32,000 nt of DNA from Pyrodictium delaneyi. GTDB taxonomy: Archaea > Thermoproteota > Thermoprotei_A > Sulfolobales > Pyrodictiaceae. Each line of letters opens with the position of its first letter. Within the stretch, counting starts at the first letter, position 1. The DNA is taken from the NCBI RefSeq assembly GCF_001412615.1, contig NZ_CP013011.1, positions 1,440,001-1,472,000 of the forward strand. The letters run 5' to 3'. Positions 4,004 through 19,028 of the stretch are shown here, piece after piece. Position numbers and translations under genes: made by a program. A model generated the notes under the pieces. That model saw only the letters and a list, made by a program, of their open reading frames with translations. It was not told the DNA's origin and did no database searches.

Positions 4004-4924
4004 GTGGCCGTAAACATACGCAAGCTCCCGCGCAAGAAGTACGTGATGCCGGGTAACGCTGCCTGCCCCGGCTGCCCAGAGACCATGGGGTTCCGCTACG
4101 TAGGAATGGCACTCGGCGAGAAGGCAGTGATGGTGATACCCGCCGGCTGTAGCTCTGTGATCCAGGGACTGTGGCCCCGGCAGGGCTGGGGGCTCCCCGT
4201 ACTCAACATAGTGTTCGCTGCAGGTGCCGCTGCTGCCAGCGGGCTCGCCCGCGCCCTACGCCGCCGCGGCATAGACGCGCAGGTCGTGGTATGGGCTGGT
4301 GACGGCGGCACCGCAGATATAGGCCTCCAGGCTCTCAGCGCTGCTGCCGAACGCGGCGAGGACATCATATACATCTGTGTCGACAACGAGGCCTACATGA
4401 ACACGGGTATCCAGAGGAGCGGCCTCACACCTTACGGTGCCTGGACCACGACGACGCACCAGGGCAAGAAGGAGTTCAAGAAGCCACTCCCACAGATAGT
4501 TGCAGCCCACCGCATCCCCTACGTAGCTACTGCAAGCATCGGTTATCCCTGGGACTTCATAGCTAAGCTCCGCAAGGCGGCGAGTATACGGGGCTTCAAG
4601 TACATACACCTTCACGCGCCTTGCCCGGTAGGCTGGAGGTTCGACCCAGGCCTCACAGCGAAGATAGCACAGCTCGCCGTCGAGACCGGTATGTGGATAC
4701 TTTACGAGTACGAGAACGGAAAACTACGGTTAAACCCGCCGAGCAACCGGCTAATAGACCCCTCGAAGAGGAAGCCTATAGAGGAGTACATTAAGCTGCA
4801 GGGTAGGTTCCGGCACCTAAAACCAGAAGACATCGAGAGGCTACGCCAAGAGGTTGAAATGAACTGGCGCGAGATAACAGCGATGCTGAAGCTGCAGGAG
4901 CTGGAGGAGCGGTCAAAGACCTAG
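4004..4924 (+). CDS. 2-oxoacid:ferredoxin oxidoreductase, beta subunit (TPP-binding)
   Basis: N-terminal Cys motif CPGCPE, TPP-binding GDGGTADIG...CVDNEAYMNTG, and a GTG start 2 nt after the alpha stop. Confidence 0.9.
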   Translation: MAVNIRKLPRKKYVMPGNAACPGCPETMGFRYVGMALGEKAVMVIPAGCSSVIQGLWPRQGWGLPVLNIVFAAGAAAASGLARALRRRGIDAQVVVWAGDGGTADIGLQALSAAAERGEDIIYICVDNEAYMNTGIQRSGLTPYGAWTTTTHQGKKEFKKPLPQIVAAHRIPYVATASIGYPWDFIAKLRKAASIRGFKYIHLHAPCPVGWRFDPGLTAKIAQLAVETGMWILYEYENGKLRLNPPSNRLIDPSKRKPIEEYIKLQGRFRHLKPEDIERLRQEVEMNWREITAMLKLQELEERSKT

Positions 4925-8636: not shown

Positions 8637-11600
8637 ATGCCGCCAGAGACTAGGCCACGTTGTGGGCCACCGCCTAGCCGTCTCCCGAGCCTGACTGGTA
8701 CTGACGCCCGGCTCCTTGACGAGTACCTGCCGCCGTTGCCTAGTAGGCAGAGGGTCTACCAGCAAGTCGCCGAAGCGCTCAACGAGATGGAGAAGAGCCA
8801 GGACCCGGTGCTAGTGCTCCTCGTGGCCGAGTGGGGCGAGGGGAAGACGAGCATCTACAATGCGCGGGTGAAGCCCTGGCTGGAGGAGAGGGGCTGGAGG
8901 AGCCTAGAAGCCCGCGCTGCCACGGTAATGGCTCATCTCGCCTCGCTGAGGAGCCGTAGCGAGCGCGACCCAGCGTACCGGCTTATGGCCGCGCTGCTCG
9001 CCGCCGGACTCGAGCAGGAGGGCATGCTGGCAGAGCACGGGGCTCCCGATGCTGCTGGGAGCCTCCGGGAATACGTGGATCGTGTCCTCCGCAGCCTCGT
9101 TCCCCGTGGTGGGAAGCTGATAGTCTTCATCGACGAGCTGGAGGACCTCGTGGCCTCGGCCCGGGAGGAGGAGCTAGCAGAGCTAGTCGCCGGGCTCGTT
9201 GGGATACTCAATGGGGACGTCGAGACCGTCTCTGCCCAGTGCCGTGGAGAGGGCTGCATGCCCGGCTCCTTCCATATAGTGGCTAGCCTCACGCCGCCGG
9301 CCTACAGCAGGCTCATGGGTCTCCGCGACTTCGCCACCGTGGCAGCGAGGCTGCGGAGGAGGATACGCAGCGTCTGGATACAGCCACTACCCCGCCGTGA
9401 GGCTTTCGCCTTCCTCGAGAGCCTCGCCCGCTACACGCTCGGCCGGGGGCTCGACGGGCTACTCGAAGACCATAGCCTCGCCCACGCCGTGGTCTCTGGC
9501 ACCCTGGGGAACATGGGGGCGCTCGTCTCGGCGTTCAGGTACCTCGTCTCCTGGGCCCGCGGCCGTGGAGGCTGCGGCGACGGCGTAGCAGTGCTCTCGA
9601 CTGGCGATCTACTCGAGGCATTGCAGGGACTCACTCTGAGCGTTGGGGGCGCCGAGCTGCCAGCCCTCAACAGCGAGGCCTACGCACGGCTAGCCGAGGG
9701 CTGGGGGGCGCGGGCCCGGCTAGCAGGCTTCGACACTGCCGCCGCCCGGAGGCTGCTAGACGAGCTAGTCGCGCGGGGCACTGTCCCTGTCGAGGAGCTG
9801 GCCGTAGCCATTGGGACCCGACTGAGCGTCGTGGCCGAGATGGTGCAAGAGCTCAACGTGTACGGTGAGCAGTCATGGCCGCGCCGGGAGCTAGGCGTAC
9901 AGAGGCTCGTCCATGAGGTCGTGGAGGCTCCAGCAGTCGAAGACGCGTTCAAGCTGCTAAGGGCCGTGGAGCCGGAGGCTGTTAAGCTCCTCCCCCAGCT
10001 GGCTGGAAGGGAGGAGCAGAAGCCGCTAGAGCAGCTACTCGACTCCCTCGTGTACCTCGACTCGGCTGGCCGGCTCGTAGTAGCGGTGCCCGCTGACGAG
10101 CGCATGGCAGCCGACCTAGTGGCGGACGCGTCGCCGCTAGAGCTGAGCCGCGCAGAGGCCGAGAGGCTCGCTGCGCTGCTGTGGGAGGGCATCTTCTCCA
10201 GGTTGCTGGGCTCCGGTGGTGCCCGGGCCTACATGCTCTCGCCGAGGCTCCAGCGTCTACTCTACGTGAGCCCCGAGCTGAGCTACCTAGACTTCATAGC
10301 TGACCGTGTCGAAAGGCTGCAAGTGATACGCCGCGTCTACACCGAGGCAGGCCGAGGCCACCTAGCAGTAGGTGTCTCAGCCCTCCTTGCTGCAGAGGGG
10401 CTGCTGGCAGAGCCGCCAGCACTGCAGGGCGAGGGCGTCGCACGCGCTGAGCTAGTCCTCCAGGGTGGTGCCCGGGCCAGAGTACTCGTCTATGCTGTGC
10501 CGGGCGAGGTAACCGCCGCGGAGGCCCGTAGACTAGAAAGCCAGGTCATGGCTGCACTCATGAGCGGGTGGCGGCCGCACGCGATACTACTAGTACACCA
10601 TGGCGGAGTGGAGCCGCAGGCAAGGCGGCTCCTAGACGCGCTGGAGGGCAAACTCTTCCTAAAGGTGGTAGAGGCCCCGATAGAGTCAATGGTGTCCCGT
10701 GCCCGGCTCCAGGCTCTGGGCGTCAAGCTCGCCGACGAGGCTGGCGGCGTAGAGGAGGCCCTCCGTGCCGCGGTCGAGGCGGCGAGGGACCCGGGGAGGG
10801 CCGAGGAGTTCGGCTTCGACCCGTTGAGGCTCCACTCGCTGCTACGGGAGCTGGCTGAGGAGATACGGCCCCGGGAGAGGCTGGAAAGAGCGCTAGAGGA
10901 GGGCATAGACGGCGCGCCACTAGTGGTGCGGGACCCCCGCCTAGGCTATGACGTGGAGAGGCCTACCGAGCTTAGCGGCGCACTCCGCTACTTCCTCGTA
11001 GTGCCTAGCACCCGTGCATCGGCTCGGGAAGCGCTCCACGCTGCCTACGAATACGTGATGCGGTATCATCTCTACCGGGGCCCCGGCGGCGAGGGCCGGG
11101 GCCTACTAAGCCCGGACATTGACCGCGGCGAGACACAGACCCTGGAGAAGTATATGCTTCTACTAGCCGCCAACGGGTTCCTCGAGAAGAGCAACGGCAC
11201 AGCGAGAATAGACACGTTGAGCCCTATGGAGCGTAGCGTGCTCCGGGCACTGGAGCAGCTCGGCGCCCGTAGCCAAGAGGTCCCCGCATCCAGGGTCTGG
11301 GAGCTGCTGGTAGTGGAAGCACGTAACCCGGGCACTCGGAGGATGCTGCTACAGGCGCTGGCCCACCGCGGCCTCGTGTCCGCTGCCGCCTCGCGGAGGA
11401 TAGACCCGGAGCGCTCCCGGCTAAGGCTACGTGACGGCGAGGAAGCCGCCTGGCAGCTAATACGCGAGGCCCGGGCCATTGTAGAGGAGATCGAGAACGA
11501 CCCCGAGGCAGCCTCCTGGGGCTATGTGGTCTCCGCTAAGGCCCGCGACTACCGCGCCGGCAGCCTAGAGGAGTTCACCCGGAAGATGTACAGCTTGCTA

Positions 11601-13067
11601 GACACAGCCGAGGAGGCCCTAAAGGCTGGCAATACACTGATGGCGCTGAGGCTTGCCCGCACAGTGCTAGACACCGCGGAGTACGTCAGGGACGAGGTCC
11701 TCCGGGGACACGTGAAGCCCGCCGCCGCCGAGGCCAGGAGGTTACGGAGCCTCCTAGAGGACTATGCGGAGAGGATAGAGGAAGCGCGCCGGGCAGCCGA
11801 AAGGATGCTCGAACAGCTGACCGGTAGCCGTGTACAGCTAGAGGTCGAGGGCTTTGAGAGGCTCCAGGAGGCCCTCCACGCGATAGAAGAGATCGAGGAG
11901 TTGCGGCTCAGCGAGAAGCAGCTAGAGGAGGAGGTGCAACAGCTCTGGGAGGAGGCCCGGCGCCGCCACCCCCGCGACCCAGGGCGCCACCTACCATTCT
12001 ACGTCGGTGGCACTGGCCCCGTGCTACACTTCAACTACAAGCTCTGGCTGCTGGCCAAGAGGCTTGAGGAGCTGGGGCTAGCACGGCTAGGCGAGTCTGG
12101 GCTCGAGGAGGGAGAGTGGCTACGCCGCACAATGCAGGCCCTGGAGACGCTGGTCAGCGAGGCCCGGAGGCTGCTAGAAGAGAGTGCTGAGCTACGCCGC
12201 CGCGCTGAGAGGCTAGCCGAGCGGCTGAGGAGGCTCGGCGTAGAGGCCCCCGCGCCGCAGAGCATCGTGCTGCAGGGGCTAAGCGCGCCCGAGAAGCTTG
12301 GCCTCGGCGAGGCCGAGCAGCTGCTCCAGGAGGCCCGGCGCCAGCTAGAGGAGGGGCGGCGCCCGCTACTGGAGCTCGAGGAGCAGGTGGACCGGCTCCT
12401 AGGCGAACTCGAGCAGCTGGAAGAGCTAGCCGCTGAGGCCGAGAGCTGGATACATGGGCTAGAAGAGGCGGCCGAGCGCGCCAGGGCAGCAGGGCTAGCT
12501 GCTAGCCAGAGGCTGCGCGAGGCCCTAGAGGACCTAGCACTGGCACTCGACCAGGCCCAGGCCATGAAGGGCAAGGCCCAGGCAGTGCTACAGCAGCCCG
12601 GCAGACTGCTAGACGCGCTCAGGGATGCCCGCAGCCTTGTCGAGAGCGCGCTCACCCTGCTACGCGACAGTCTAGAGAGGAGCAAGAGGATACACGCGGA
12701 CGCGGTAGCGGAGGCCGAGAGGCAGCGCCAGGCCCTAGAGGCCGAGGCCCAGGCGCTCCGCGAGGCGCTGGAGAGGACCGGGGCAAGGGCGCCACAGCCG
12801 CCACGCAGCAGCGACCCGTTCACCGCTATAGCTGGGCTCCACGAGTACATCGAGAAGCTGCGACGCATGGCGGCTGAGGCGGGGGTACTATCGCAGATGG
12901 AGATGGAGGCCTACCGGGTGGTGGCCCTTGAGCGTAGGAGGCGCGGCGAGCTGCTGCTACGAGAAGCAGCCGAGCTAGTAGCGGAGAGCCTCGGCATAGA
13001 CCTCGAGGAGGCTCGCCGTATACTCATAGCCCTCATCGAGAAGGAGATACTCGAGCCAAGGCTATAG
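8637..13067 (+). CDS. Very large P-loop NTPase (KAP/ORC-like AAA-type N-domain) with winged-helix-like segments and a long C-terminal coiled coil; function unknown
   Basis: Walker A VAEWGEGKTS (nt 8835-8852) and Walker B KLIVFIDELED (nt 9117-9146). An AAA-lid-like segment reads IRSVWIQPLPRREAFAFLESL. HTH-like segments include LLDELVARGTVPVEELAVAIG, SVLRALEQLGARSQEVPAS and the C-terminal LVAESLGIDLEEARRILIALIEK. Residues from about 950 to 1400 are E/R/L/A heptad-rich. Continuous codon-like coding runs over 4.4 kb. The true start could be downstream (in-frame TTG in PPLPS, or the ATG in NEMEKS). Confidence 0.8.
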   Translation: MPPETRPRCGPPPSRLPSLTGTDARLLDEYLPPLPSRQRVYQQVAEALNEMEKSQDPVLVLLVAEWGEGKTSIYNARVKPWLEERGWRSLEARAATVMAHLASLRSRSERDPAYRLMAALLAAGLEQEGMLAEHGAPDAAGSLREYVDRVLRSLVPRGGKLIVFIDELEDLVASAREEELAELVAGLVGILNGDVETVSAQCRGEGCMPGSFHIVASLTPPAYSRLMGLRDFATVAARLRRRIRSVWIQPLPRREAFAFLESLARYTLGRGLDGLLEDHSLAHAVVSGTLGNMGALVSAFRYLVSWARGRGGCGDGVAVLSTGDLLEALQGLTLSVGGAELPALNSEAYARLAEGWGARARLAGFDTAAARRLLDELVARGTVPVEELAVAIGTRLSVVAEMVQELNVYGEQSWPRRELGVQRLVHEVVEAPAVEDAFKLLRAVEPEAVKLLPQLAGREEQKPLEQLLDSLVYLDSAGRLVVAVPADERMAADLVADASPLELSRAEAERLAALLWEGIFSRLLGSGGARAYMLSPRLQRLLYVSPELSYLDFIADRVERLQVIRRVYTEAGRGHLAVGVSALLAAEGLLAEPPALQGEGVARAELVLQGGARARVLVYAVPGEVTAAEARRLESQVMAALMSGWRPHAILLVHHGGVEPQARRLLDALEGKLFLKVVEAPIESMVSRARLQALGVKLADEAGGVEEALRAAVEAARDPGRAEEFGFDPLRLHSLLRELAEEIRPRERLERALEEGIDGAPLVVRDPRLGYDVERPTELSGALRYFLVVPSTRASAREALHAAYEYVMRYHLYRGPGGEGRGLLSPDIDRGETQTLEKYMLLLAANGFLEKSNGTARIDTLSPMERSVLRALEQLGARSQEVPASRVWELLVVEARNPGTRRMLLQALAHRGLVSAAASRRIDPERSRLRLRDGEEAAWQLIREARAIVEEIENDPEAASWGYVVSAKARDYRAGSLEEFTRKMYSLLDTAEEALKAGNTLMALRLARTVLDTAEYVRDEVLRGHVKPAAAEARRLRSLLEDYAERIEEARRAAERMLEQLTGSRVQLEVEGFERLQEALHAIEEIEELRLSEKQLEEEVQQLWEEARRRHPRDPGRHLPFYVGGTGPVLHFNYKLWLLAKRLEELGLARLGESGLEEGEWLRRTMQALETLVSEARRLLEESAELRRRAERLAERLRRLGVEAPAPQSIVLQGLSAPEKLGLGEAEQLLQEARRQLEEGRRPLLELEEQVDRLLGELEQLEELAAEAESWIHGLEEAAERARAAGLAASQRLREALEDLALALDQAQAMKGKAQAVLQQPGRLLDALRDARSLVESALTLLRDSLERSKRIHADAVAEAERQRQALEAEAQALREALERTGARAPQPPRSSDPFTAIAGLHEYIEKLRRMAAEAGVLSQMEMEAYRVVALERRRRGELLLREAAELVAESLGIDLEEARRILIALIEKEILEPRL

Positions 13068-14553: not shown

Positions 14554-15041
14554 ACCCAGAACACCCTGGCCCTATCCGCTCCGCAGACTAGATAGAGGTT
14601 AGCACGCTAGCAGGCATTAGCTGCAACATAATCATCACATGCTCCCGCACCGATTATCTAACGACAGGAAGAATAGAATTTTAGGGTGAACGAGCAACTA
14701 ACCCCCGCTCCCAGTGACTAGTTATGTTGCTTCGAATCCCGATTCACAATCCTTGACACCGGGCAGCTAAACGGCCGAAAGCAATAGAGCATGCCAGTAT
14801 CACAAACCCCTCTATGACGCGAGTCAATCCACTGTCCTAGCAATTACTGTGCTGGTTACACTGTCATACCCTACCATTTACAATTCAACTCCCTAAGGCT
14901 AATACGCGGGGACAGGGCAGCATACCAACCCGATGTACTAGCTACACTCTGCTACCTGACACACAAATCTATTTATCATTATTTATAACTTGGATAGCCG
15001 AATGTCGTATATACCTGGAACGCTAAACTATATTGAATACC

Positions 15042-15056
15042 TATATATATATATAT
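15042..15056. repeat. (TA)7.5 microsatellite; also the probable TATA region of the 15100 gene
   Basis: TATATATATATATAT lies 44 nt upstream of GTG 15100. The SD-like GGGGTGAT at 15084-15091 lies between them. Confidence 0.7.
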
Positions 15057-15099
15057 CAACATCATGTATAGTTCACCCGCGCCGGGGTGATACAGCCTG

Positions 15100-16719
15100 G
15101 TGCTCCTACACGGCTCAAAAACTGCAGCAATGCTAACTATAGCACTGATACTAGCCGCGTCATCAACTATGCTTGTAAAGCATTACACTACAGCAACCAT
15201 CTACGAGGATAGGTCTACTATTGTTACGGCAACTCGGCCTCTGATATCGAGAGGCCCACCGGTACTAACGATAGAGGTTAGCGACCAACAAGGAAGACCA
15301 GTAGACTTCTACGCTACGATAAGCATGCCTGCTGCCAACGGCAGTCTCATACACAGTAAGCCAGTGCGCGGTCATGGTCAAGCCACGATAGAGCTAACGA
15401 AGTACGCCGAGGAGCTATCAAGGCTGTTAGACTCGATAAACGCGGCAGGCAAACGGCTCCAAAAGATAGGGATACTAGTACTCCTAACCAGTGTAGAGAT
15501 AGAGAACGGCAAACCAGTAGTAGTCACCGATGCGTTTACCGTACCCATTAGCCTAGACGTGTTGAAGCCAGGCTACCATATAAAGGCAGTACACAAGTTC
15601 ACCCCCAAGGCCAAGACTGAGGCTAAGCAGGCGAAGCCACAGATACAGCTAGCAGCACCAAAACTAGACCTAGCCACGAGCCCCGTAGAGCCCACAGTCA
15701 ACGGACCATGCGTAGACTACGGCTTTAGCGTCACATGCTACTACTGGGAGCTAGACCAGATAGTATACCCTCCAAGCGGCGTAGACAACACCGTAAACAT
15801 GCCCTTCACAATAGTTGATGTAGCCCCAAGCAACGGCATCGACTCGCCAGCACAGAAGACAGAATCTGTGATAGTAAGTAACGTTATACGACTCCAGCTA
15901 TACACTATAGAAGAAGTAGAGATAGGGCTAGTAGTGGACTTCACACTGCTAGGCGGGTCTGTCACGATACCAGGACCAGCATTCGTAGACAGTATAAGAA
16001 ACTATGATACCTCCATCAAGACACTCCTAGACGTACAGTGTACATTCCTGAATACCCTCAACAGCCTGCCTGGGTCAAAGTGCACGCTGAATGGTATCGA
16101 TGCAGCTATCCCCGACTACTATTATGCAGCATACCTGGCTACTGGTGCTGAGGGTAGGCTATGGGTAGCAAAATATAACCTTATAGCTGAGACCTGCGAC
16201 CTGGACGGCATTTGCTACACTGAGAGTATTGGTAGCAACTATGCAGCATACTTTATACCCATCTACAATATCTTCGGGTACTTCGAACCCTACGTGGAGG
16301 TACAGGACGATTACTACAACTATGGTGGCTACCTCTACCGTGTGCTCGACGACTTAAGAAGCAAAATGGAAACAGCCACTATACTGAGCGGATACTATAA
16401 CGATAGACAATTCAACTACTATAGTGTAATCGTTGACGTGAATGGAGAGACGTACATGTCGGTATCTCTCCCCGTAGGCTCCGTAGCGGCTATAGTCTCG
16501 GGACTCAACCTGCCAATGGCTGCTACAACACTCAGCTTTACAGTAACATCTAGCGTGTACTACATTACCGCGTATGAAAGCCTATCGACTGTAACTATAG
16601 ATATAGATACGTCGGTATACCCAGGTATGCAGTATAGCAGTGAAGTCCTGAAGACCGATATGATGGTTGTACCAGATAACGGCGTCTTCACAATCCCGTT
16701 GATGGCCTTAAGACCGTGA
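15100..16719 (+). CDS. Secreted or membrane-anchored hypothetical protein (orphan, Tyr/Asn/Thr-rich)
   Basis: N-terminal hydrophobic anchor AAMLTIALILAASSTMLV. Three closely spaced Cys pairs (CVDYGFSVTC, CTFLNTLNSLPGSKC, CDLDGIC) suggest extracellular disulfides. GC is lower than the flanks. I recognise no family. Confidence 0.65.
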   Translation: MLLHGSKTAAMLTIALILAASSTMLVKHYTTATIYEDRSTIVTATRPLISRGPPVLTIEVSDQQGRPVDFYATISMPAANGSLIHSKPVRGHGQATIELTKYAEELSRLLDSINAAGKRLQKIGILVLLTSVEIENGKPVVVTDAFTVPISLDVLKPGYHIKAVHKFTPKAKTEAKQAKPQIQLAAPKLDLATSPVEPTVNGPCVDYGFSVTCYYWELDQIVYPPSGVDNTVNMPFTIVDVAPSNGIDSPAQKTESVIVSNVIRLQLYTIEEVEIGLVVDFTLLGGSVTIPGPAFVDSIRNYDTSIKTLLDVQCTFLNTLNSLPGSKCTLNGIDAAIPDYYYAAYLATGAEGRLWVAKYNLIAETCDLDGICYTESIGSNYAAYFIPIYNIFGYFEPYVEVQDDYYNYGGYLYRVLDDLRSKMETATILSGYYNDRQFNYYSVIVDVNGETYMSVSLPVGSVAAIVSGLNLPMAATTLSFTVTSSVYYITAYESLSTVTIDIDTSVYPGMQYSSEVLKTDMMVVPDNGVFTIPLMALRP

Positions 16720-16948
16720 CAAGAATAACTTGCTTACACAAAGACATGGCCATCGATGGTACCTAGAACGTAGATGCATACTCTCTTTTTCGCAGCTGTA
16801 TTCCCCGTAAGCCGTTTTGCTTGATGGATAGCTGCCGCGCAGTGAAAGACCGGGCTTATGGCTAGCTAGCCCTATTATCCTGTGCCCATGTTGGAGGACT
16901 GACAAGGATTAATAATATTTAGGCTAATGTGTTAAGCCATTAGTGTGA

Positions 16949-17560
16949 ATGCCTACATGCTCTGAGAGATGTGGCCCCAAGCACCAGCTTAGCGGAGGGT
17001 TGGGTACGATCTTGTCTAGTAGAGTTGTCCTAGTACCGTTCCACCTGGCCAGGCTTGGTAAGAGGATAGTGGGCCTAGACGCGTTCTTCTGGCCAAGCCT
17101 AGAGAAGAGGTACCGGGTAGTTCTCCTAGTACACCCTGCTGAGAGGCTAGGAGAAGCTGCCATAGAAGGCTGTCAACTCCCTGCACAAGTGGATATAGGA
17201 AGTCAAATCGGCGAGATACGGGAAATCGCGCAACGTAAGCCAGAGGGACCTCGGGCACCACGTGCTACTATGCGGCGGAGGTTTGCCTGGTTCCTGTTGC
17301 CACTCAACATGCTCCGCGATATGCTGCGCAGCGAAGCCGAGGAGTTCCAGTTATCGGAGGAGCTGCAAGCTGTGGGCCTTGCCAAGATTCTTAGAGAGTT
17401 GGAGCCTCTCGGGGAGACCCGTTACGCAGTCTTCGAGCCAGTGGAGGAGGATGGCGAGAAGCTGCTCTTACCCGTTGACGATCATATGAGGAGGATATAT
17501 CGGGAGCTAGCACGCCGCGACCAGGGCTATAGAAGGGCAGCAAGCCAGGCAGGATGCTAG
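16949..17560 (+). CDS. Hypothetical protein; only the C-terminal ~97 aa (from ATG 17270) look protein-like
   Basis: MRRRFAWFLLPLNMLRDMLRSEAEEFQLSEELQAVGLAKILRELEPLGETRYAVFEPVEEDGEKLL has ordinary composition. The upstream 107 codons are doubtful. No family recognised. Confidence 0.35.
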   Translation: MPTCSERCGPKHQLSGGLGTILSSRVVLVPFHLARLGKRIVGLDAFFWPSLEKRYRVVLLVHPAERLGEAAIEGCQLPAQVDIGSQIGEIREIAQRKPEGPRAPRATMRRRFAWFLLPLNMLRDMLRSEAEEFQLSEELQAVGLAKILRELEPLGETRYAVFEPVEEDGEKLLLPVDDHMRRIYRELARRDQGYRRAASQAGC

Positions 17561-17580: not shown

Positions 17581-17685
17581 AGGCGGGTCGGCCAGCAGCC
17601 CCTAGTCGTCATGCCCTGGGGCCCGCAGCCCCCGGGGACCGGCTGCGGAGCCCCTCTGCTTTGCTACATCTCCCCATACCCGCCT
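17581..17685 (+). ncRNA. Candidate structured RNA element or 3' structure (extended GC-rich hairpin, ~105 nt)
   Basis: Nested helices: AGGCGGGT 17581-88 pairs with ACCCGCCT 17678-85; AGCAG 17594-98 pairs with CTGCT 17656-60; GGGGCCCGCAGCC 17618-30 pairs with GGCTGCGG-A-GCCCC 17641-54. It forms a GC-rich patch inside an AT-rich island. Confidence 0.3.
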
Positions 17686-17832
17686 GCCACGGCTAGCACG
17701 TAGTGTGTTGCCGAGGCTATATCTTCTATGCCCGACTGATGGCACCAAACCATTAGGACTCTATTATTGATGGCCTTCTCCTGCGTGCTAACGACGGTCA
17801 CAGCTAATAGTTCTAAGCCTTGAGTAGGCTTC

Positions 17833-17878: not shown

Positions 17879-19028
17879 GTGCGCTATGTTAAAAGACTTA
17901 GAGGCATGAGCGATTTCGCCGTATTCCTCGCCTTGTTAGTGTTGCTCATACTCCTCATCATCCTTGCTTCCCGGGCTAGCCTGCCCTACACCCCTTCTAT
18001 GACTGCCACAGTTACTGTCACCAACACCGCAACATTTGATGAATCTGTAACTAGTACAAGAGCCAATCTGCAGGAGAAAGCTACAACAAAGACGCTAACA
18101 TTTTACAGAGACGCGGACAATGACAGAGACTGTAACAGCTACCGTTACAGTGACAGCCACTATAACGGCTACAAAGATTGCTGCTACTGCCTCCTCCTGG
18201 TGCAGTATCGCTTGCTACTACCTGACAAATATCGAGTCGGAGCCTTTACTGGCCAGGCACTGGACTGTAGCAGTGATAGAGCCAGATGAAGCAAATGACA
18301 CACTGCTAATGGAGGTGAGGAAACGCAGCGACCTGGTTCTCGCCTACCTAAACGCCGGGTATGCCGAGGAGTGGAGGAGCTACTGGGACGTAGTCAAAGA
18401 TAAGCCCTGGATCCACGGCACCACCATGTACGAGGGCGAATACTATGTGGAATATTGGCACACTGAGTGGAGGAAGATACTTGTAGAGTTAGCAACGAGA
18501 TACCTGGCTAGGGGGTTTCAGGGCATCTATCTAGACAACATCGATGCAGCCGAGCTGCTTGCTATAGAGAGACCCTCTTGGGCTCAGGGAGTAGATCCAC
18601 GAGAAGCCATGATAGATCTCGTCTGTAACGTGTCCAATGCCGTCAAAGCCGTAGACCCTAAGGCAAAGGTGTACCTCAATATCGGTGGTGCAGTGAACCT
18701 GCTGTACAATGACCGCCTCCTAGGCTGCATAGATGGGGTGCTACGAGAGGAGCTGTGGAGCCACCCAGGCCCAAGCGGACCCGAGCCACAGGACCCTTGG
18801 GAAACTCTCGCAGCGCTCGACGCGCTAGCCTATGCACACAGCCACGGGAAGACCGTGCTAGTGGCGGATCCCGTGAACGACTTAAAGGAGGCTTGGAGTT
18901 TCTGTGTAAAGGCCTGGAGCCATGGCTTTATTCCAGTTCCGCAGCCAGCCTGGGCTCTTGACTACAGCGCTCCACCTCCACCAGTTTGGTGCAGTTGCAG
19001 CACCTCAATGGTCAAAAGCAACAAGTGA
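17879..19028 (+). pseudogene. Frameshifted gene: signal anchor plus Thr/Val-rich stalk (frame A) joined to a GH114/TM1410-like glycoside-hydrolase TIM-barrel domain (frame B, +1)
   Basis: Frame A (17879..18289) encodes FAVFLALLVLLILLIILA plus TATVTVTNTAT, then degenerates into C/Y/D/R-rich nonsense. Frame B is open from 18099 and continues the stalk (TETVTATVTVTATITATK) into the catalytic domain. The only place to switch is the TTTT run at 18101-18104. Confidence 0.7.
18120..19028 (+). CDS. GH114-like (endo-alpha-1,4-polygalactosaminidase / TM1410-like) hydrolase domain ORF
   Basis: VLAYLNAGYAEEWRSYW, YYVEYWHTEWRKIL and ARGFQGIYLDNIDAAE match my recollection of the GH114 family core (..YlsiGeae.yR.YW.. 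/ ..GfDGvyLDnvD..). There is no signal peptide and no SD before ATG 18120. Confidence 0.7.
   Translation: MTETVTATVTVTATITATKIAATASSWCSIACYYLTNIESEPLLARHWTVAVIEPDEANDTLLMEVRKRSDLVLAYLNAGYAEEWRSYWDVVKDKPWIHGTTMYEGEYYVEYWHTEWRKILVELATRYLARGFQGIYLDNIDAAELLAIERPSWAQGVDPREAMIDLVCNVSNAVKAVDPKAKVYLNIGGAVNLLYNDRLLGCIDGVLREELWSHPGPSGPEPQDPWETLAALDALAYAHSHGKTVLVADPVNDLKEAWSFCVKAWSHGFIPVPQPAWALDYSAPPPPVWCSCSTSMVKSNK

Follow-up and report, generated by a model that had tools for sequence, protein, structure and literature searches.

The locus and the question it raises

The window, as the whole 32,000-nt stretch of Pyrodictium delaneyi DNA analysed here will be called, is a segment of archaeal chromosome that carries a NUDIX hydrolase, a putative GH114-type glycoside hydrolase and a Peripla_BP_2/FecCD transporter. 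Within a gap between its genes, at positions 17581-17685, lies a GC-rich patch that can be folded into an extended hairpin, and this raises the question of what kind of element such a patch represents and from which strand it is to be read. The gene that ends just before it, referred to here as ORF18x and belonging to the Hbut_0170 family, encodes on the plus strand a conserved hypothetical protein of ~183 aa (17012-17560), with its stop 20 nt before the element; the listed ORF starts at 16949, and the homologues begin about 21 codons later. A preliminary description of the locus favoured an mRNA 3′ stabiliser, and named an sRNA and a protein-binding palindrome as further options.

Comparison with related loci and with published guide RNAs suggests that the element is a minus-strand gene for a box C/D methylation-guide sRNA, the archaeal counterpart of the C/D snoRNAs, a reading to which we assign a probability of about 0.88. 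The gene would be convergent with ORF18x, which is not part of the RNA. The observations behind this reading are the anatomy of the minus strand, its conservation and covariation in relatives, its independence from the neighbouring ORF, the identity of its spacers to published guides and their complementarity to published crenarchaeal 23S rRNA sequences. The preliminary description was right in taking a local GC spike as the mark of a structured small RNA and in listing an sRNA among the options.

Composition, folding and database searches

The patch is GC-rich, as had been reported, with 72% GC over its 105 nt, which places it in the top 2.6% of the 105-nt windows within the window. The accompanying remark that its surroundings are AT-rich overstates the contrast, given that the window as a whole has 58.9% GC and that the local dip, to 47-56%, is limited to the stretch between 15 and 19 kb. 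The gap around the element, previously estimated at ~320 nt without a credible ORF, measures 318 nt and contains only ORFs of 45-48 aa; analysis of coding potential in six frames across these 318 nt revealed no credible ORF, and indels between relatives disrupt every reading frame of the gap.

Three helices had been drawn by hand, two of which reappear in the minimum free energy folds. On either strand RNAfold pairs 17581-88 with 17678-85, which gives the basal helix of 8 bp, and 17618-30 with 17641-54, which gives the upper helix of 13 bp and its single bulged base. The third, a 5-bp helix (17594-98 with 17656-60), is not conserved, and shows uncompensated changes in L001, L007 and Hyperthermus butylicus (related loci are numbered here with the prefix L, H. 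butylicus being L005). The folding energy of the element is not above that of dinucleotide shuffles (z = -1.07 for the plus strand and -0.91 for the minus strand), so that the case for the hairpin rests on conservation and covariation in relatives.

A scan with Rfam had been proposed as a check, and no family was found in the element at its gathering threshold. When Rfam 15 was run at gathering thresholds on the window and 13 related loci, the only match was one tRNA elsewhere, and relaxing the search of the window to E values of up to 10 gave only mir-4429 (E 5.7). The archaeal C/D family sR43 aligned with the L004 copy on the same strand at E = 1, its 11 bits lying below the gathering threshold of 45 and the match not being significant. 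ARAGORN returned nothing at 17581-17685, and no similarity of the element was found in the phage database. The element is single-copy, and the sole related stretch in the window is a 22-nt inverse match of 91% inside a 1476-aa ORF, judged to be due to chance; a repeat or mobile element was discarded on these grounds. An H/ACA sRNA was also considered and rejected. In agreement with what had been remarked before, neither strand has a conserved ACA after the basal stem, and the upper stem contains neither a GA.AG motif nor a kink-turn.

Relatives of the element and the neighbouring gene

ORF18x has 16 homologues, including Hbut_0170 of H. butylicus, and examination of their contigs revealed a copy of the element near the gene in almost every lineage. 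Two stretches are invariant across these loci, one of them GGTCGGCCAGCAGCCCC-like and the other GCTTTGCTACAT, and the stems differ. A CM built from the copies of the window and L001 detected exactly one copy per locus in 13 related loci that had been fetched via the neighbour gene or via a DNA motif, the short variant of L004 included; the same kind of search did not find the element in L020 and L021, where the ORF is present. Scans of 185,579 genomes and a metagenome collection with the DNA motif added just two Pyrodictiaceae loci, with one hit of each scan being the same contig, and five chance bacterial matches. One of the motif-scan loci again lies directly after a homologue of ORF18x.

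The position of the element with respect to the gene is variable. It points the same way as the ORF in the window, L001, L002/3, L005, L013 and L014, it is inverted in L015, L016 (on the same contig as L007) and L017-19, and in L004 a 504-aa gene stands between the two. The occurrence of both orientations and the separation in L004 indicate that the element is an independent gene and not a 3′ UTR. Throughout three different gene neighbourhoods, and in both orientations, it stays beside the 3′ end of ORF18x. The ORF18x protein has an AF2 model with a pLDDT of 83 (confident), and no match to it was found in Pfam, NCBIfam, the PDB sequences or the PDB folds. In H. butylicus the element is located 95 nt upstream of the operon of the Peripla_BP_2/FecCD/ABC transporter, and a riboswitch controlling this downstream transporter was therefore considered; it was ruled out because the element accompanies the other neighbour, because its orientation is reversed in some lineages, and because it lies upstream of the TATA-like box of the transporter.

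Box anatomy of the minus strand

The preliminary description had stated that the element lacks C/D boxes and had for that reason excluded a C/D guide sRNA. The statement holds for the plus strand, the only one that had been read. The GA/UGA box motifs are confined to the minus strand, on which C, D′, C′ and D boxes are found in canonical order and spacing. According to the box parse of the reverse complement, the predicted gene occupies 17581-17685 on the minus strand, and is 105 nt long when measured between the outermost bases of the terminal stem. All features of the RNA described below are on this strand.

The parse opens with the 5′ strand of the terminal stem P1, AGGCGGG (17679-17685), whose partner is 17581-17587. 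It is followed by a 3-nt kink-turn bulge (U-A-U), the first base of which is the U at 17678, and by the C box AUGGGGA (17671-17677), which departs from the family form RUGAnGA by having G and not A at position 4. The D′ guide GAUGUAGCAAAG, of 12 nt (17659-17670), contains AUGUAGCAAAG, invariant in 10/10 copies, and leads to the D′ box CAGA (17655-17658), which reads CNGA in nine family copies and GCGA in L015. Between D′ and C′ a hairpin is inserted, P3 (17618-17654), made of 13 bp with one bulged U at 17649 (the bulged A of the plus-strand description) and the loop GGUCCCCGGG, within which the palindrome CCCCGGGG (17630-17637) is kept in 9/10 copies. The linker AGGGC (17613-17617) connects P3 to the C′ box AUGACGA (17606-17612; RUGAnGA in 8/10 of the family). 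Next comes the D guide CUAGGGGCUGCUGG, of 14 nt (17592-17605), in which GGGGCUGCUG is invariant in nine copies, L004 having CGCCGGCGACA instead. The D box CCGA (17588-17591; CUGA in L015) ends the series, and the 3′ strand of P1, CCCGCCU (17581-17587), stands directly after its GA.

All 10 distinct copies can be parsed in the same manner, as a stem, a 3-nt bulge ending in U,.UG..G., exactly 12 nt, ..GA, a hairpin, a linker, a C′ box of the form RUG(A/G)nnn, 11-15 nt, C(C/U)GA and a stem. The terminal stem varies across the family from 4 to 9 bp (7 bp in the window), and the D′-C′ insert from 22 to 44 nt (42 nt in the window, of which the hairpin itself takes 37 nt). The D′ spacer is exactly 12 nt in 10/10 copies; the D spacer ranges from 11 to 15 nt and is slightly long in the window, at 14 nt. 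If the RU of the C′ box is included, the bulge of the internal kink-turn measures 7 nt in the window; L004 and L009 have 3 nt there, and most other copies 7-11 nt. A relaxed box pattern combined with a terminal stem of at least 5 bp, drawn up after the family had been seen, has one match on both strands of the 32-kb window and none in 100 dinucleotide shuffles.

Boxes for both kink motifs of a C/D RNA can be assigned. At the terminal stem, box C (AUGGGGA) and box D (CCGA) are juxtaposed; they are degenerate, and box variants of the family are shared with verified sRNAs of Ignicoccus hospitalis, among which AUGGGGA (IHOsR202), GUGUGGA (IHOsR205) and CCGA D boxes occur. The second motif consists of the D′ and C′ boxes and is closed by a helix, not by a loop. 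A candidate promoter, the TATA-like GATATAG preceded by a purine-rich AGAA, is located at 17717-17723 on the minus strand, 31 nt upstream of P1. Motifs of the type (A/T)ATAG or TATTAG are found 30-36 nt upstream of the element in L001, L002, L005, L014, L016 and L017, which makes seven lineages with the window; no TATA-like motif was found upstream of the element in L015 and L013. No T-rich terminator follows the predicted gene in the window.

Conservation and covariation

When MAFFT and RNAalifold were applied to the raw sequences, the basal stem alone was recovered, because the hairpin is not alignable by sequence, and the CM and a box-anchored alignment were then used. In this alignment (A7), assembled from the box parse of the 10 distinct copies and for that reason leaning towards the structure, 91.3% of the cells are paired, compared with 69.1% in column shuffles (none of 500 was as high) and 36-54% when the partners are slid along. 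Double-sided changes are present in 10/15 pairs, including C′6-D′1 and C′5-D′2, in 4/5 basal pairs of P3 and in 4/6 counted pairs of P1 (10 sequences). The self-complementarity of P3 within each lineage is independent of A7: the sequence of this stem is wholly different from lineage to lineage, yet it is always paired (6-14 bp). The covariation analysis of homologous regions, which had been put forward as a way of checking the hairpin, thus bears out its 8-bp basal and 13-bp upper helices, both of them kept by compensatory changes across 10 related Pyrodictiaceae loci. The two spacers behave in the opposite way, remaining invariant while the stem sequences turn over between lineages and while the neighbour proteins are 44-92% identical.

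The L004 copy is informative about the relationship between the two spacers. It keeps the boxes, both kink-turn motifs and guide 1, and it has a different 8-bp hairpin, a canonical 3-nt bulge before C′ and the unrelated guide 2. This replacement of guide 2 rules out that the spacers are held by mutual pairing, which eliminates the hand-drawn 5-bp helix and also a conserved inner helix GUAGC/GCUGC between the spacers, another candidate that was tried and of which L004 replaces one side entirely. Guide replacement with the boxes kept is the usual mode of C/D sRNA evolution.

[quoted passage not shown] The pair C6-D1 is G-C in all ten, and C5-D2 is G-C in eight copies, U.U in L015 (the sole copy with a CUGA D box) and C.C in L009. 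Position 4 of the C box is A in 6/10 copies, while the window and L001 have G there and L007 and L017 have U; with its G4, the second sheared pair of the C/D kink-turn in the window is not standard. No U.U pair occurs in the boxes of the window, whose D box is CCGA and not CUGA. In the internal motif, C′6-D′1 is C-G in the nine copies other than L015, where it is G-C, and C′5-D′2 takes the forms C-G, G-C, U-A and U.G, with A.C in the window and L009; GA is present on both sides of this motif in 9/10 copies, the C′ box of L009 having GG. The G.U pairs of L002, L007, L017 and H. butylicus would become A.C if read on the plus strand, but counts of G.U versus A.C do not by themselves settle the strand, as the A.C at D′2-C′5 in the window and L009 illustrates.

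Guides and predicted rRNA targets

A literature search of main texts for the guide sequences gave nothing relevant. They were matched in Additional file 1 of Dennis et al. 2015 (PMC4644070), a supplementary table of the C/D sRNAs identified by RNA-seq in I. hospitalis (Desulfurococcales). One of these, IHOsR132, contains ...GAGGTAGCAAAGCTGA... (in a longer stretch, ...ATGAGCGGAGGTAGCAAAGCTGA...), and its D′ guide, GAGGUAGCAAAG followed by CUGA, matches the D′ guide of the window in 11/12 nt. Another, IHOsR06, contains ...GTGAGGAGAAGGGGCTGCTGGCCGA... (in a longer stretch, ...CTGAGGGGTGAGGAGAAGGGGCTGCTGGCCGATCC...); the core of the D guide of the window together with its CCGA D box is identical to the D guide of this sRNA, GAAGGGGCUGCUGG followed by CCGA, the shared core being GGGGCUGCUGG. 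The 23S targets reported for sR6 are C2807 (D guide) and C2880 (D′ guide), and those reported for sR132 are U2734 and G2768 (PMC4644070). Of these positions, which follow the numbering of the archaeal alignment in that paper, G2768 corresponds to E. coli G2494 and C2807 to E. coli 2533.

Target complementarity rests on the 23S sequences of I. hospitalis and Sulfolobus acidocaldarius. The D′ guide is complementary to 23S UUUGCUACAUC as it stands in S. acidocaldarius, with 11 contiguous pairs formed by GAUGUAGCAAA(G). In the 23S alignment of PMC4644070, the region of E. coli 2488-2504 reads GGUUUGCUACCUCGAUG in I. hospitalis and GGUUUGCUACAUCGAUG in S. acidocaldarius, and the one difference between the D′ guide and sR132, U for G, suits A and not C at E. 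coli 2499, a position that is A in S. acidocaldarius and C in I. hospitalis. For its part, the D guide GGGGCUGCUG forms 10 bp with I. hospitalis 23S CAGCAGCCCC, inside GUGCAGCAGCCCCCAAGG (E. coli 2527-2544). Following the N+5 geometry, the fifth base upstream of D′ lies opposite G2494 and its counterpart upstream of D opposite position 2533, both in Watson-Crick pairs with the published targets.

The predicted targets in the host are thus 23S G2494 and position 2533 in E. coli numbering. Both sites are in domain V, near the peptidyl transferase centre and ~40 nt apart, and this proximity within one domain fits the 'double guide' class that was described by Dennis et al. 2015 (PMC4644070). A pairing of guide 2 with the 530 loop of 16S rRNA (GCCAGCAGCC) had also been considered, and was dropped for the 10-bp 23S match at the published sR6 site. 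The guide 2 of L004 agrees in 9/11 nt of our own alignment with the sR132 D-guide target region near E. coli 2460, where a shared target is only possible.

Alternative explanations

Other readings of the element differ from a box C/D guide sRNA either in the function of the minus-strand RNA or in the strand and the molecule that matter. Closest to it is the view of the element as a minus-strand kink-turn RNA that binds L7Ae without guiding, whether as a decayed C/D sRNA, as an rRNA folding chaperone or in some other regulatory use. The window copy offers several features that such a view would predict, namely the AUGGGGA C box, the CCGA D box, the 14-nt D spacer and the 7-nt linker at the internal kink-turn, and double guides that pair without methylation are documented (Dennis et al. 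2015, PMC4644070). The same box variants, however, belong to abundant and verified sRNAs of I. hospitalis, the N+5 positions are Watson-Crick to the published target sequences, and the guides have not changed between lineages whose neighbour proteins share only 44-92% identity, which is why we regard loss of guiding as unlikely. Less probable still is the explanation that had been the leading suggestion, a plus-strand 3′-UTR hairpin of the gene at 16949/17012-17560 that would serve as mRNA stabiliser or terminator. The arrangement in the window, L001, L002, L005, L013 and L014, where the element lies 7-35 nt past the stop on the same strand as the ORF and with no promoter between, would suit this function. 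It is contradicted by the inversion of the element in L015, L016 and L017-19, by the 504-aa gene inserted between in L004 and by the absence of the element from L020 and L021 despite the presence of the ORF; on the plus strand, moreover, the invariant spacers have no explanation and the helix between them is not conserved.

The palindromic character of the sequence leaves a reading at the level of DNA, as a protein binding site, a recombination site or the remnant of a mobile element. An inverted repeat centred on the conserved CCCCGGGG and the inversion of the gene in evolution can both be cited in its favour, but there is one copy per locus and no repeat elsewhere in the window, and the compensatory changes of the arms, the G.U pairs and the bulges are what an RNA would be expected to show, unlike a protein site. 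The conserved loops, asymmetric and matching known guide RNAs, point in the same direction. A protein-binding palindrome, the non-RNA option raised at the outset, would leave the strand-specific GA/UGA boxes, the G.U pairs and the 23S-complementary guides unexplained, and among the explanations weighed here we find the DNA-level one the least credible.

Proposed mechanism and wider meaning

For the preferred reading as a box C/D guide sRNA, the following mechanism can be proposed by analogy with established members of the class. Transcription would most likely start from the TATA-like GATATAG 31 nt upstream and proceed convergently with the neighbour gene. In the transcript, a kink-turn would form where the terminal stem joins the C box (AUGGGGA) to the D box (CCGA), and a second one where the GC hairpin P3 joins the D′ box (CAGA) to the C′ box (AUGACGA). 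L7Ae would bind the two kink-turns, after which a Nop5 dimer and two fibrillarins would assemble, leaving two single-stranded spacers that may pair with 23S rRNA. Fibrillarin would then 2′-O-methylate the nucleotide opposite guide position five, counted upstream from D′ or D, and the RNA could act as a 'double guide' that also aids local rRNA folding. We infer from what is known of the family that this organism expresses the element as RNA, that L7Ae, Nop5 and fibrillarin bind it and that both sites are methylated. The long stems (the 37-nt hairpin and the 7-bp terminal stem) probably give the RNA and its RNP extra stability at the growth temperatures of the Pyrodictiaceae. The departures from the textbook form, that is, the degenerate boxes, the length, the insert, the long spacer and the 7-nt strand, slightly lower our confidence that both halves are fully active, and they also account for the gene having been missed by Rfam and by box rules applied by eye.

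The apex of P3 deserves separate consideration. The 8-nt CCCCGGGG is found at the exact centre of the apex in 9/10 lineages, although the stem below it has been completely replaced. It could be imagined that the inserted hairpin is a functional module and not a passive clamp, either through loop-loop pairing of two sRNAs that sets a dimeric sRNP near 100 °C or through recruitment of an extra protein, a proposal to which we attach only a slim chance; the thought that the apex might pair the two sRNAs of a di-sRNP is speculative and was prompted by Yip et al. 2016. Were the hairpin functional in one of these ways, the archaeal C/D RNP would here possess an extra internal domain of a eukaryote-like kind. 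As a side observation, the uncharacterised Hbut_0170-family neighbour would be a candidate for a recruited protein.

On the preferred reading, the element would add to the Pyrodictiaceae an unannotated family of C/D guide RNAs that matches no Rfam family; no report of a C/D sRNA from the Pyrodictiaceae was found in the literature that was searched. It also illustrates how strand choice and degenerate boxes (AUGGGGA, CCGA) can conceal such genes from by-eye rules and from Rfam. The family offers a clean natural example of guide modules that have been re-paired, with an sR132-type D′ guide and an sR6-type D guide in most lineages and another D guide in L004. Re-pairing of guide modules is a topic in reviews of archaeal sRNA evolution. 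Furthermore, the stem-closed internal kink-turn and the size of 105 nt would widen the known structural range of archaeal C/D sRNAs, and such a structure may bear on the stability of the RNP at extreme temperature.

Comparison with known systems

The element resembles two different sRNAs of I. hospitalis. Its 3′ half is nearly the same as that of sR6, with a D guide ending in GGGGCUGCUGG and the non-consensus D box CCGA in both; the C′ box of sR6, GUGAGGA, is that of H. butylicus, L007 and L017, the window having AUGACGA. On the other hand, sR6 is only ~60 nt long, with a 3-nt D′-C′ loop (GGG) and a short terminal stem, and its D′ guide AGAGUCCGACCC (target C2880) is unrelated to that of the window element. 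The resemblance to sR132 concerns the D′ guide, which is GAGGUAGCAAAG followed by CUGA in that sRNA and is close to GAUGUAGCAAAG followed by CNGA, whereas sR132 is also ~60 nt long, has a 2-nt D′-C′ loop and carries a D guide unlike that of the window.

Canonical archaeal box C/D sRNAs have 50-70 nt, a K-turn and a K-loop, and spacers that are typically of 10-12 nt (Breuer et al. 2021, PMC7994747). The element shares with them the order C-guide-D′-C′-guide-D, the 12-nt D′ spacer, the terminal stem, the N+5 geometry, the GA in each D/D′ box, the UGA in most C/C′ boxes (the C box of the window being AUGGGGA) and a location that adjoins the 3′ end of an ORF. It differs in that an insert of 22-44 nt, containing a GC helix of 6-14 bp, takes the place of the short K-loop and brings the total to ~105 nt, in that position 5 of C/C′ forms mostly Watson-Crick pairs and not U.U with position 2 of D/D′, and in its terminal stem of 7-9 bp (7 bp in the window), its 14-nt D spacer and the 7-nt strand before C′, as against 3 nt. 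At 105 nt, the element falls outside the size of 50-70 nt with a short D′-C′ loop, which is a typical property of the class and not a mechanistic requirement.

An internal stem between D′ and C′ occurs in eukaryotic C/D snoRNAs. The element is like them in that an internal helix, and not a short loop, joins the C′ and D′ boxes, and a length of more than 70 nt is normal among them, their reported range being 50-300 nt (Breuer et al. 2021, PMC7994747). Shared ancestry of the insert is not claimed, and the C′/D′ boxes of the window family are well conserved, unlike most eukaryotic ones. Our understanding of the C/D mechanism is left unchanged by these comparisons, from which the element would emerge as a structurally atypical representative of a well-known class.

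Genes around the predicted sRNA gene

The constant neighbour of the predicted box C/D methylation-guide sRNA gene (17581-17685, reverse strand) is a gene of the Hbut_0170 family, located on the forward strand at 17012-17560 in the window. Proteins of this family (homologues P0001-P0016) are approximately 180-190 aa long and were observed only in Pyrodictiaceae-like contigs. The AlphaFold model is confident (pLDDT 83, pTM 0.75) and predicts two lobes rich in beta-hairpins, together with helices. No significant match was obtained in the PDB by either fold or sequence, and no family is assigned in Pfam or NCBIfam.

Between this gene and a NUDIX gene lies a forward-strand ORF call of 539 aa (15100-16719, within the stretch 14554-16948), for which Pfam and NCBIfam return no match. 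The GC content of this stretch is 47-49%, compared with 59% for the window. In Hyperthermus butylicus and in L004, a related locus, the NUDIX and Hbut_0170-family genes directly adjoin, and two other related loci, L001 and L002, carry an ORF of 516-517 aa at the same place. The 539-aa ORF looks like a lineage-specific insertion.

Downstream of the sRNA gene, a putative glycoside hydrolase gene of the GH114/TIGR01370 type (17879-19028, forward strand) is spread over two frames overlapping by approximately 170 nt. One frame encodes a signal-peptide-like N-terminus followed by a Thr/Val-rich linker (17879/17908-18289), and the other a second Thr/Val-rich stretch and the GH114 domain (18120-19028), so that the gene looks frameshifted. 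As the equivalent region of L001, a locus 92% related, yields ORF calls of only 41 and 157 aa, a decaying gene is suggested.

Farther upstream, a very large forward-strand ORF of 1476 aa (8637-13067) gives only a weak N-terminal hint of a KAP/P-loop NTPase, and its GC-rich internal direct repeats (e.g., 12508-12561 and 12718-12771) suggest coiled-coil repeats. Within this ORF, positions 10396-10417 (forward strand) form a 22-nt inverse match (20/22) with 17582-17603, a part of the sRNA gene comprising portions of the D guide, the D box and the stem. At this site, the mRNA and the sRNA agree in sense, and the match, one among 140 inverted pairs, was judged to be due to chance.

Apex palindrome and a short variant of the predicted sRNA

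The exact apex of the hairpin inserted between the D' and C' boxes is occupied by the palindrome CCCCGGGG (17630-17637), which occurs only twice across the whole 32-kb window. It is present at the same point in eight lineages (the window, L001, L002, L007, L009, L014, L015 and L017), and with the CCCGGGG apex of H. butylicus an apex palindrome is found in 9/10 lineages altogether. The stem sequences differ between lineages sharing it.

L004 harbors a short sRNA variant of approximately 86 nt (4477-4562, reverse strand), in which C' is preceded by a canonical 3-nt bulge and the D guide, CGCCGGCGACA, is a different one. This guide aligns at 9/11 nt with 23S rRNA around E. coli positions 2458-2468, a short distance from the site that the D guide of Ignicoccus hospitalis sR132 targets. 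The L004 copy may represent the more ancestral, sR132-like arrangement.
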